Below, piece after piece: positions 27,760-29,805 of a DNA stretch of 64,000 nucleotides. The notes under the pieces were generated by a model. That model saw only the letters and a program-made list of their open reading frames with translations. It was not told the origin of the DNA and did not search any database. The stretch's first letter is position 1. Every line of letters starts with the position of its first letter. This DNA comes from an uncultured Gammaproteobacteria bacterium (GTDB taxonomy: Bacteria > Patescibacteriota > Patescibacteriia > Magasanikbacterales > UBA922): positions 11,377 through 75,376 of the forward strand of contig CAZKAD010000002.1 of NCBI GenBank assembly GCA_964550845.1. The letters run 5' to 3'. A program made the translations under genes and the position numbers.

Positions 27760-28338
27760 ATGGCACTTGTTAAAAATTGCCTTATCATTTCTCTTGAATG
27801 CGATTACAATGACATGATACAACAATATCGCGTTTCCCGATATGCCGAAGGCAAGCAATTGTCCTTCGGTGAAGGAAAACAAAAGGTCTCGACAGTTCTA
27901 TATCAAGATCAAACTGGTGGTCAATTTCGAACAATTGACTTTTTTATTCAAGCGTTGAAGCAAGGAAAGGTTTTTGATGTTTACAGTCAACAAGTTTCAC
28001 TCTCAAAGTTCAAATGGAAACTCTTTTTGACTTCAAAATACCATCGAGTTGGAGATATTCCTCCATTGGAACAATTGAGCGAAGAATTCAAACGATTTGT
28101 TTGGACTGATAAAGTATTCGCAGAATATCTTTCCGCAAATGACGGTGATGAATGTAAGGATCTGTTTGCAAATTACACTGTGATGATTGATTTGTCCCAA
28201 CAAATTTGGAAAAGGAGAGATTTGCTTGATTTTCTTCAACAAAAGCCATCTGCGGAACTTGATCGAGACAGTGATCCTGAAGTCTACAAACAATTTGCCC
28301 AGTTTGAAGACAAACTATTTGGATTGTTAAAAGAATAA
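27760..28338 (+). CDS. Paralog family A protein
   Basis: SKFKWKLFLTS, PPLEQLSEEFKRF and FAQFEDKLFGLL are shared with the family. AAAATTGA at -75. Confidence 0.6.
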   Translation: MALVKNCLIISLECDYNDMIQQYRVSRYAEGKQLSFGEGKQKVSTVLYQDQTGGQFRTIDFFIQALKQGKVFDVYSQQVSLSKFKWKLFLTSKYHRVGDIPPLEQLSEEFKRFVWTDKVFAEYLSANDGDECKDLFANYTVMIDLSQQIWKRRDLLDFLQQKPSAELDRDSDPEVYKQFAQFEDKLFGLLKE

Positions 28339-28368
28339 CCGAATGAAAGAATGAAAAATAAAAAGTAA

Positions 28369-28395
28369 TCTTTCTTTTCCTCTCGAGGAAAAGAA
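28369..28395 (+). promoter_or_regulatory. Palindrome CTTTTCCTC-TC-GAGGAAAAG immediately followed by AAAATTGA, upstream of paralog 28455-29051; duplicated at 29061-29087, and a third copy at 29826-29845
   Basis: Direct reading. Confidence 0.55.
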
Positions 28396-28454
28396 AATTG
28401 ATTTTTTTCTCTTCTTTTCTGGTGAAATTTAAAAGTCTACAATTAATTATCTAT

Positions 28455-29051
28455 ATGGCGCTTCCTCAAAATCATTTGGCAATCAAAGTATCATTTGATC
28501 GACAAGATCGTGTTGCGAGTTATCAAATCTCTCATAAGGACAAAGGAGAATTTGTCCCAGTACACAAAAATAAGAATTGTGGAAGCTATCTTCGTGGATA
28601 CGAAAATAAGAACGATAACTTGACGTTCAATCTATTCACTCTTGCTGTGAGTAAAGGACTGGTGTGGACTCGAGAAGATGAATCGAAGAAGGTTGATGAA
28701 TCGACGTTCAAGTGGAATACTTTTGTCTGCTCGACATATCGCTCACTTGCGATGTTGCCTCCACTTGACGAACTGAAAGAAGCATATTCTACATTTGAAA
28801 TGTCGAATGAAGGAATGAAAAAATTTCTTCAAAAAGCCGATGACATTATGAATCAATATCACATCATAATTGATGTCGAAAAGCAACCCGAATTGACGAG
28901 AGATCTTCTCGATCTTCTCAACCAAAAAGATTACGTTTTGGCTGATGAGAACGAGATTGAAGATCAAGATGAGATGGGTGACTATACAGAGAATCTTGCC
29001 TTTTTCAACAAAGTTGAAGACCTCTTGTATCTTCTTATACAACGCGCATAA
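28455..29051 (+). CDS. Paralog family A protein
   Basis: Start moved to MALPQNHLAIKV (aligned with MEIPQEYLAIKV of the next paralog). The track start lies inside the duplicated promoter. Confidence 0.6.
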   Translation: MALPQNHLAIKVSFDRQDRVASYQISHKDKGEFVPVHKNKNCGSYLRGYENKNDNLTFNLFTLAVSKGLVWTREDESKKVDESTFKWNTFVCSTYRSLAMLPPLDELKEAYSTFEMSNEGMKKFLQKADDIMNQYHIIIDVEKQPELTRDLLDLLNQKDYVLADENEIEDQDEMGDYTENLAFFNKVEDLLYLLIQRA

Positions 29052-29147
29052 ATAATATTTCTTCTCCTCTCGAGGAAAAGAAAATTGAGTTTTTTCTCTT
29101 TATTGTTGATGAAATTAAGAATTCGTCAATTAAAAGTCTCCGGGACT

Positions 29148-29244
29148 CATTAAACGTTCTTAAAGAACTGGTTAAACGTTCTTAAAGAACTGGTTAAACG
29201 TTCTTAAAGAACTGGTTAAACGTTCTTAAAGAAACGGTTAAATG
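29148..29244 (+). repeat. Tandem array of 23-bp units GGTTAAACGTTCTTAAAGAACTG x4 ending in TTAAATG (start of 29242-29805)
   Basis: Direct reading. Hairpin GTTCT-TAA-AGAAC. Confidence 0.9.
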
Positions 29245-29805
29245 GAGATTCCCCAAGAATACTTAGCAATTAAAGTGTCTTTCAATTTAAAATCTAATAC
29301 CACCCATTATAGCATTAGTCACAAACGAGAAGGCCAATATATTCCTATTCAAAATAGTATAAAATTTGTCTTTTATTTTCGCCGTTATGGGAATAAGAGC
29401 ATTAATAATTATCTAGCTCATAGTTTGTTTATTCGCGCCTTGGATAAAGGTTTGGTATGGACGCAAACGGATAATCCAAGACGGATTGAAGCATCTGAAT
29501 TCAAGTGGAATGCCTTTCTTTGCTCAACCTATCAGTCGCTAGAAAGGTTACCTCCCCTCGGCGAATTGAAAGAGCAATATTCTTCATTTGAGATGAAGGA
29601 TGTAGACATAAAAAATTTATTTCTAAAGGATGGTACAATTATGGATCAATATTTCATCGCCATTGATGTTACTCGGAAACCTAAACTTATTGCTGCATTT
29701 CTTGAGCATATTGATCAAAAATGTTTTGTTTCGGTTGTTGAGAACGAAGATAAAGATCTTGAACTCTTCAACACTACCGAAACGTTTTTGTTTATGCTTG
29801 TATAA
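29242..29805 (+). CDS. Paralog family A protein
   Basis: ATG fused to the 4-copy repeat array (GGTTAAATGG). Collinear with 28455-29051. Confidence 0.6.
   Translation: MEIPQEYLAIKVSFNLKSNTTHYSISHKREGQYIPIQNSIKFVFYFRRYGNKSINNYLAHSLFIRALDKGLVWTQTDNPRRIEASEFKWNAFLCSTYQSLERLPPLGELKEQYSSFEMKDVDIKNLFLKDGTIMDQYFIAIDVTRKPKLIAAFLEHIDQKCFVSVVENEDKDLELFNTTETFLFMLV

Follow-up and report, generated by a model that had tools for sequence, protein, structure and literature searches.

How does a large DNA virus come to carry five diverged copies of a small protein that resembles nothing with a name, and what could such proteins do for it? The question is raised by a stretch of 64,000 nucleotides (nt; hereafter the window) of contig CAZKAD010000002.1 in GenBank assembly GCA_964550845.1, in which five genes of this kind, here called m1 to m5, stand in two tandem clusters. 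We suggest that they belong to a lineage-specific and so far undescribed multigene family of nucleocytoplasmic large DNA viruses (NCLDV), with at least six subfamilies, five of them within the window. The products would most likely be non-enzymatic binding or adaptor proteins of diversified specificities, made early in infection. Taken as a whole, we regard this explanation as rather probable, by no means as certain.

The five genes are paralogs. Their end-to-end alignment (MAFFT) has 20 invariant columns; the other members are 22-35% identical to m1, and even the most distant pairs match significantly over their full length in BLASTP (expect value E=1e-10 for m1/m3, 3e-14 for m2/m4). The original prediction, drawn from the letters of the window, had named five paralogs in two tandem clusters, and all five open reading frames (ORFs) were found there (Table 1). 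The shared motifs it had pointed to read in the alignment as FIxALxKGLVW, SxFKWxxFLxSTY, LPPLxxLSEEFxxF and FxQFExxLFxLL, and its expectation that pairwise similarity would prove significant when properly aligned is borne out by the E values above. A six-frame scan of the window with the family hidden Markov model returned m1-m5 only, the next best match having E=0.1. The mechanical ORF of m2 opens at TTG 28398; its likely start is ATG 28455, because this codon lines up with the N-termini of the other members. Proteins identical to m3 and m4 exist in databases (P0001 and P0002, respectively), where they belong to an NCBI contig of 223,513 bp.

Table 1. Family members, their signals and other features of the window (aa, amino acids; ORF + alignment, gene located by both)
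Feature	Coordinates	Strand	Remarks
m1	27760-28338	+	192 aa; ORF + alignment
m2	28455-29051	+	198 aa, from ATG 28455; ORF + alignment
m3	29242-29805	+	187 aa; ORF + alignment
m4	5023-5625	-	200 aa; ORF + alignment
m5	5713-6279	-	188 aa; ORF + alignment
m1 3' hairpin with AAAATTGA of m2	28371-28401	+	hairpin 28371-28396 overlapping AAAATTGA 28394-28401
m2 3' hairpin with AAAATTGA of m3	29058-29088	+	hairpin 29058-29083 overlapping AAAATTGA 29081-29088; z -1.4
m3 3' hairpin	29818-29843	.	between convergent m3 and 29863-30309(-); no promoter after
m5 3' hairpin with AAAATTGA of m4	5682-5710	-	hairpin 5687-5710 overlapping AAAATTGA 5682-5689
m4 3' hairpin with AAAATTGA	4972-5000	-	hairpin 4977-5000 overlapping AAAATTGA 4972-4979, which faces next minus-strand gene
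AAAATTGA of m1	27678-27685	+	divergent partner 27656-27663 on minus strand
AAAATTGA of m5	6384-6391	-	112 nt upstream of m5 ATG
15-bp tandem array, x4.3	6274-6338	-	m5 leader, against ATG
22-bp tandem array (TTAAACGTTCTTAAAGAACTGG), x4.2	29150-29242	+	m3 leader, up to ATG
RPB2	15602-19180	-	1191 aa
TGGTTAAAC arrays, window	8689-8781(-), 29150-29242(+), 34343-34452(+), 43823-43871(-), 49735-49867(+), 51118-51185(-)		
TGGTTAAAC single copies, window	1448, 9658, 11005, 52966, 52996, 61006		
TGGTTAAAC repeat outside window	L018 785-835		

No recognisable homologue had been seen in the original prediction, for which assignment to a known housekeeping domain by a profile search would have been contrary evidence. 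Searches of Pfam-A with the five members and 16 relatives assigned no family: the best E was about 0.05, to unrelated and differing families and far under the gathering cut-offs. Search of PDB sequences gave no significant match, and Foldseek comparison of predicted structures with PDB (both models described below) and BFVD returned neither an E of 1e-3 or less nor a template modelling (TM) score above 0.25. A word-indexed search of 5.8 billion proteins found 9 related clusters, and an exhaustive HMMER scan of 1.84 billion representatives found 12, one of them spurious (P0032). About a dozen related clusters in billions of proteins, without a named homologue, agree with the proposed lineage specificity. 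The database relatives are unnamed or labelled "hypothetical protein", and no further members turned up in searches of IMG/VR or of JGI metagenome contigs. Within its clade the family reaches about 20% identity across deep divergence.

Two apparent links were rejected. The spurious cluster, a bacterial surface protein (E=4e-6), hinted at fibronectin III; its score adds up five repeat matches with 8-12 bits and E >1e3 apiece, and the aligned FFIQALxxG segment is a helix in both AlphaFold models. Among PDB sequences, the AMPK alpha-subunit matched over 40 residues with E=0.077, which was taken as noise.

The surroundings are viral. The window has a G+C (GC) content of 35% and carries the NCLDV hallmarks RPB2, a separate C-terminal piece of RPB1, a D5/C962R-type primase-helicase and an A32-like ATPase, together with PIF1 and SNF2 helicases, a NIF/CTD phosphatase, protein kinases, thioredoxin, UDG, Fpg and a serine recombinase. 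In the 5.8 billion proteins, only two relatives of RPB2 exceed 40% identity (67% and 44%) and the rest of those found stay at about 33% or less; because of this, the source is apparently a deep-branching, uncultivated NCLDV lineage. Several sequencing runs contain relatives of the virus, as do two NCBI assemblies that are very fragmented. Both family clusters sit in the conserved genome core, beside RPB2, RPB1, the D5 primase, PIF1 and the NIF phosphatase.

Contigs syntenic with the window allow comparison of the window's own strain (W) with strains R (GCA_020049755.1, contig JAHZTO010000538.1, loci L003 and L009), T (SRR13208895, locus L017), Q (JGI 3300038404 and SRR12762303, loci L021 and L022) and S (SRR27787828, locus L024). 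The m1-m3 cluster is seen in W, R and T, the PIF1-NIF cluster in W, R, Q and S. Copy number, which the original prediction proposed to check among related isolates, differs in both. The m1-m2-m3 cluster has three genes in the window and in T and two in R, where m3 is gone; the PIF1-NIF cluster has two genes in the window, R and S, and three in Q. The additional gene of Q, m6 (P0027, 189 aa), is flanked by m5 and m4; it shares 43% identity with m5, and a neighbour-joining tree places it on a branch of its own.

The spacers between the genes offer a clue to how such differences arise. Spacers 28363-28446 and 29050-29133 are 83% identical over 84 nt, and a palindrome, TTTCTT(T/C)TCCTCTCGAGGAAAAGAAA, occurs three times, behind m1, m2 and m3; the octamer AAAATTGA is absent from the third copy. 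Soon after the stop codon of all five genes stands a palindrome with a stem of 9-12 nt. As RNA, the m1 hairpin folds at -11.9 kcal/mol and is kept in strains R and T; that of m3 folds at -10.4 kcal/mol, and 0 of 200 shuffles were as stable. The hairpins of m1, m2 and m3 all fold better than shuffles (z -2.2, -1.4 and -4.3), and that of m5 folds weakly (z -0.4), its sequence being kept in strains R and Q. The stems are centred on ...CTCGAG... or ...TTCGAG... cores.

Such palindromes are not confined to the family. A stem of at least 8 nt precedes or overlaps 15 of the 38 AAAATTGA sites in the window, as against about 10% of random segments, and pairs of hairpin and AAAATTGA also stand beside unrelated genes, for example at 15578 after RPB2. 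Since stems accompany so many AAAATTGA sites, including those of unrelated genes, the repeated block is composite: it joins the 3' hairpin of one gene to the promoter of the gene that follows, into which the hairpin's 3' arm (...GAAAA) extends. The proposal that a palindrome-promoter block was duplicated with the gene therefore needs amendment; the spacers were copied along, but the block is not purely a promoter, as a 3' hairpin is fused to it. Palindromic hairpins set mRNA 3' ends in Mimiviridae (PMC4402537), and the non-polyadenylated transcripts of the invertebrate iridovirus IIV-6 end at hairpins (PMC5923455).

The third palindrome had been regarded as an orphan copy, left by a lost sixth member. 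It is the 3' hairpin of m3, and it lacks a following promoter because m3 and the gene at 29863-30309 converge there. In strains T and R, too, the cluster ends there with this hairpin and no promoter, and we reject the lost-gene reading. A sixth subfamily does exist, in the form of m6, but in the other cluster.

The octamer itself is the early-gene motif of Mimivirus (PMC5294985). Its 38 sites in the window compare with 24.8 expected, a count reached by 0 of 100 shuffles, and about 22 window ORFs have it 36-93 nt upstream of the ATG. Among the members it stands 82 nt (m1), 61 nt (m2) and 64 nt (m4) before the ATG, and 161 nt (m3) and 112 nt (m5) when the 22-bp and 15-bp arrays of their leaders are counted. 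Thus an octamer enriched in the genome is found at 61-161 nt, where up to about 150 nt had been allowed for. On other contigs the octamer precedes, at about 40-60 nt, even very distant members of the family (about 20-25% identical). Before m4 the window reads AAAATTGATTATTATTG; the mapped promoter of the IIV-6 DNA polymerase gene is AAAATTGATTATTTGTTTT, of which AAAAT is essential (PMC5294985). From the motif we infer that the family is probably expressed early. Upstream of m1, at 27645-27692, a divergent promoter pair, TCAATTTT...AAAATTGA, is laid out as an inverted repeat and serves m1 on the plus strand and the gene of a 167-aa membrane protein (27067-27570) on the minus strand.

One deletion can be read at its junction. 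In strain R the sequence after m2 is ...GCGCATAAATAATATTTCTTCTCCTCTCGAGGAAAAGAAA|TGCTAAC...CTTCGACAAA. Its left part corresponds to the window spacer after m2 (hairpin copy 2), its right part to the spacer after m3 (copy 3), and the switch falls within 30 nt that both window copies share exactly. By synonymous divergence (dS) of flanking genes T is the outgroup (for a gene of 740-764 aa, W-R 0.075, W-T 0.57, R-T 0.54). Because T carries m3, it is more parsimonious to assume that R lost this gene, presumably through recombination between the direct hairpin-spacer repeats. The spacers on either side of m6 in Q hardly differ in the hairpin, the promoter and the first leader bases, and the single m5-m4 spacer of the window has an m4-type leader, all of which is consistent with the same deletion mechanism. 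The idea that R lost m6 in an event of its own, broken within the 5' coding region, was dropped because comparison of the leaders did not discriminate (46 versus 44 matches of 56).

Further, the strains differ in the alleles that they carry. The m1 protein is 91% identical to its ortholog in R and 80% to that in T, and m3 is 70.6% identical to that in T. For m5 the values are 97% in R and Q and 88% in S, with dS of 0.05-0.09 across W, R and Q (W-R 0.09). The m4 gene exists in two allelic types: that of the window is 97% identical to Q and 70% to R, with dS of 0.07 for W-Q and with R differing at 0.55-0.64 (W-R 0.55). The neighbouring NIF gene has dS of 0.065 for R-Q and 0.40 for W-Q. For m2, dS between the window and R and T is 0.98-1.42 (W-R 0.98) and that for R-T is 0.49, which suggests that the window m2 is a recombinant allele. 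The mosaic divergence around the clusters indicates exchange of divergent alleles and implies frequent recombination among co-circulating strains. A rearrangement breakpoint was also noted just inside the gene divergent from m5 (window 6440-6500 versus L009 5150-5210). This gene is a PIF1 helicase (MSTEGEKEN...) in the window and in Q and S, and a protein kinase of 265 aa in R; the sequence neighbouring the R kinase, including its first coding bases, matches that of the window.

The orthologs are under purifying selection. The ratio of nonsynonymous to synonymous divergence (dN/dS) is 0.13-0.43, well below 1 in all nine comparisons: 0.18 for m1, 0.14-0.18 for m2 (R and T), 0.43 for m3 (T) and 0.34 for m4, so that m3 and m4 are highest. 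Neighbouring core genes have 0.04-0.07, and other orphan neighbours 0.12-0.36, with the exception of one gene of 148 aa. Between the paralogs dS is at least 1.7, saturated or not computable, and because of this saturation the paralogs are old; they are also functional. The idea of rapid turnover thus applies to the presence and absence of genes and not to their sequences, which are conserved, given old paralogs and such low ortholog ratios. As to the exceptional orphan, which is convergent with m3 (29863-30309(-)), its comparison with L003 11305-11760 gives a dN/dS of about 1.08 for W-R (dN 0.077, dS 0.071), and that with strain T 0.24-0.29. The value of 1.08 may stem from relaxed selection, from positive selection or, substitutions being few, from noise.

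We propose the following course of events. Ancient tandem duplication of a unit composed of gene, 3' hairpin and early-type promoter would have enlarged the family. Each gene would be a self-contained transcription unit, with AAAATTGA about 40-80 nt before the ATG (farther where a leader minisatellite grew) and a palindromic hairpin after the stop codon, the 3' arm of which extends into the next promoter. As the spacers stayed near-identical, unequal homologous recombination would now add or remove whole genes even between close strains, and strains also swap divergent alleles. The spacer architecture, the deletion junction and the copy-number differences are observed directly.

The leaders evolve as well. 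The 15-bp repeat that had been noticed, in four copies, against the ATG of one member is the x4.3 array of m5; a second array, of 22 bp before m3, had been missed. Strain R has 2 copies of the 15-bp array, as against 4.3 in the window, and 3 copies of a 7-bp ATTCAAT array, as against 5. The 22-bp array is not present in the orthologous m3 leader of strain T. Two small upstream ORFs were found in these leaders, one of 14 codons before m3 (29108-29152(+), MKLRIRQLKVSGTH) and a minimal one, ATG-TTT-TAG, before m5 (6363-6371(-)); they may lower translation.

What the proteins do has to be judged from their properties. They have about 190 aa, an isoelectric point of 4.9-6.4 and no membrane-spanning hydrophobic segment, and are predicted to be soluble, mildly acidic and of alpha/beta type. 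After the start methionine, at least 80% of 14 full-length relatives conserve Y23, A65, G69, F84, W86, F89, Y94, P101, L106, F113, D144, F179, E183 and L186. Mostly aromatic or aliphatic, with two acidic positions only, this set looks like the signature of a hydrophobic core. AlphaFold2 models m1 with a predicted local distance difference test (pLDDT) value of 85.4 and a predicted TM score (pTM) of 0.82, and m5 with 92.1 and 0.87. The two models agree on a four-stranded N-terminal sheet followed by a helix, a short strand, several helices and two strands, and in both a long C-terminal helix is predicted to carry FxQFExxLFxLL.

We favour binding or adaptor proteins because the family keeps its promoter type and its members are soluble and acidic, show no conserved catalytic constellation and can individually be missing in nature. 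The paralogs may differ in the partner, from host or virus, to which each is tuned; the original prediction had proposed a host-interaction family, and both the binding role and host interaction are putative. Several points weigh against this picture. Since 12 of 14 sequences keep D144 and E183, a minimal active or metal-binding site is possible. The hairpins of m4 and m5 are no more stable than shuffled sequence (z about -0.4), and the motif is the sole basis for early timing. Insertion of m3 in W and T in place of its loss in R is a conceivable though less parsimonious history, and so it is with m6.

Both the position and the conservation of the clusters lead to a different idea, namely that the proteins serve the virus's own early programme, by scaffolding or chaperoning the machinery of early transcription or replication or as its specificity subunits; the paralogs would share the work. 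They lie in the conserved core near RPB2, RPB1, D5 primase, PIF1 and NIF phosphatase, the family persists to about 20% identity with the same promoter, and every member is under purifying selection. However, a part of this machinery should hardly be dispensable in nature, as m3 (gone in R) and m6 (gone in the window, R and S) are, and the members' dN/dS is several-fold above that of the neighbouring core genes (0.13-0.43 versus 0.04-0.07). We therefore consider such a role a serious possibility, though an unlikely one. Selection also speaks against selfish or nearly neutral cassettes, useless to the virus, whose spread and loss would be due only to recombination of the hairpin-promoter spacers. 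Gene presence does vary between close strains, with junctions in repeats, and leader minisatellites do expand; but all nine ortholog comparisons lie well below 1, ORFs are intact in all strains examined, and the subfamilies, two of them with confidently predicted folds, were kept although they are old (saturated dS). This scenario is hardly credible.

The predicted structures bear on yet another explanation, a divergent and probably inactive fold of RNase H-like or other nuclease type that acts on nucleic acids or binds them. The predicted order of elements (3-4 N-terminal strands, helix, strand, helices) resembles the RNase H-like core, and RNase HI, the HSP70 nucleotide-binding domain, NurA, the C-terminal half of UvrC, Cas9 and the nuclease-like domains of CidB recur in the top rows of the Foldseek lists. 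They are never significant there: the RNase H-like and CidB matches have E of 0.009-2, the best reaching E=9e-3 with probability 0.23, TM does not exceed 0.25, and nearly all full-length alignments have a root-mean-square deviation above 10 Å. Neither a significant structural match nor conserved acidic catalytic residues, the two marks of the superfamily, was found; the first strand and the first helix contain no conserved acidic residue. Moreover, acidic proteins are unfavourable to nucleic-acid binding. We regard a nuclease fold as very unlikely and keep to binding or adaptor proteins.

Among known systems, multigene families (MGF) 100, 110, 300, 360 and 505 of African swine fever virus (ASFV) are alike in being tandem, diverged paralogs within one NCLDV lineage, with copy number that varies between isolates. 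Of the marks of an MGF-like system, tandem paralogs with copy-number variation between isolates are present here. Several ASFV MGF members are early genes that modulate host responses. Homology to ASFV MGFs or to any other named NCLDV multigene family was not found, either by Pfam, which presumably holds models of the ASFV MGFs, or through the database relatives. In addition, ASFV MGFs occupy terminal variable regions, whereas, within the limits of the window, the clusters described here are in the conserved core, close to genes of RNA polymerase and primase. By analogy, the family might have a previously undescribed fold and act in host range or immune evasion of a deep-branching NCLDV, as ASFV MGFs do; we put this forward tentatively and think it doubtful. 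A likeness exists also to other copy-number change through recombination in large DNA viruses, such as the gene accordions of poxviruses, in which whole genes are gained or lost via short direct repeats flanking tandem copies. Those accordions consist of recent, near-identical copies under strong selection, whereas the copies here are ancient and only spacers of about 30-85 nt are still similar.

The signals resemble those of two other virus groups. Mimiviridae have the same octamer, enriched and at a similar distance before ATGs (PMC5294985), and palindromes after stop codons (PMC4402537). Here, unlike in Mimiviridae, hairpin and following promoter overlap through the hairpin's 3' arm, in what appears to be one compact terminator-promoter module. 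The virus is not a close mimivirid, as its RPB2 shares only about 33% identity with those intein-bearing homologues from giant viruses that were found. In IIV-6, AAAATTGATTATTTGTTTT resembles the AAAATTGATTATTATTG of m4 (PMC5294985), and transcripts end at hairpins (PMC5923455); IIV-6 hairpins carry TAATG/CATTA (PMC5923455), in contrast to the CTCGAG/TTCGAG cores found here. No close iridovirus homologue of RPB2 surfaced in the search of 5.8 billion proteins. We take a NIF/CTD phosphatase, a separate C-terminal piece of RPB1, an RPB2 of about 1190 aa, a 223.5-kb contig and 35% GC to fit an iridovirus-like virus, a fit that is not proven. Beside RPB2, a separate gene (19708-21066(+)) encodes 452 aa; its ortholog in strain R, of 452 aa too, contains the RNA_pol_Rpb1_5 domain only, which suggests a split largest RNA polymerase subunit. 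Iridoviruses have a split largest subunit.

The 22-bp array of m3 is part of a dispersed repeat family. Its units of 20-22 bp consist of a box, TGGTTAAAC(G/A)T, and a short variable palindrome, and are single or in tandem of 2-4 (Table 1); TGGTTAAAC occurs 21 times where 0.5 is expected. At four genes the last unit stands in sense orientation 27-32 nt upstream of the ATG, and other copies lie just after stop codons. The former position suggests a second promoter class; promoter, 3' signal and expanding minisatellite are all candidate readings of the repeats. A related array (GATTAAACGCC and palindrome) is found 3' of a distant family member on another virus contig. In strain R a unit is duplicated inside a coding region (L003 12326-12367, window about 30830-30870, gene 30357-30911(-)). 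The duplication reads as SP(S/E)GRLT peptide repeats on the opposite strand, and the ortholog of the 184-aa gene thereby grows to 203 aa. Another possible trace of mobility is the serine recombinase at 38946-39746(-) (Resolvase N-terminal domain, E=2e-9); strain R has it too, and it could mark a mobile element inside the viral genome.

Large DNA viruses hold many lineage-specific paralog families, and the few that have been studied, such as ASFV MGFs and poxvirus host-range families, control host range and immune evasion. A viral multigene family of the sort described here is of a normal kind, moderately interesting yet expected in an NCLDV genome. What sets it apart is an unusually clean natural record, in which the module of gene, hairpin and promoter would be the unit of duplication and the 30-nt hairpin spacer the substrate of deletion, and in which a deletion junction is directly readable in a sister strain. 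Two confidently predicted structures have no neighbour in PDB or BFVD. If a host-range or immune-evasion role is true, the repertoires of strains (presence of m3 and m6, divergent alleles of m2 and m4) would mirror an arms race with the host. The family would be a reasonable target if the virus or its host were identified, and proof of a new fold, or of a role in host interaction, would add to its interest.

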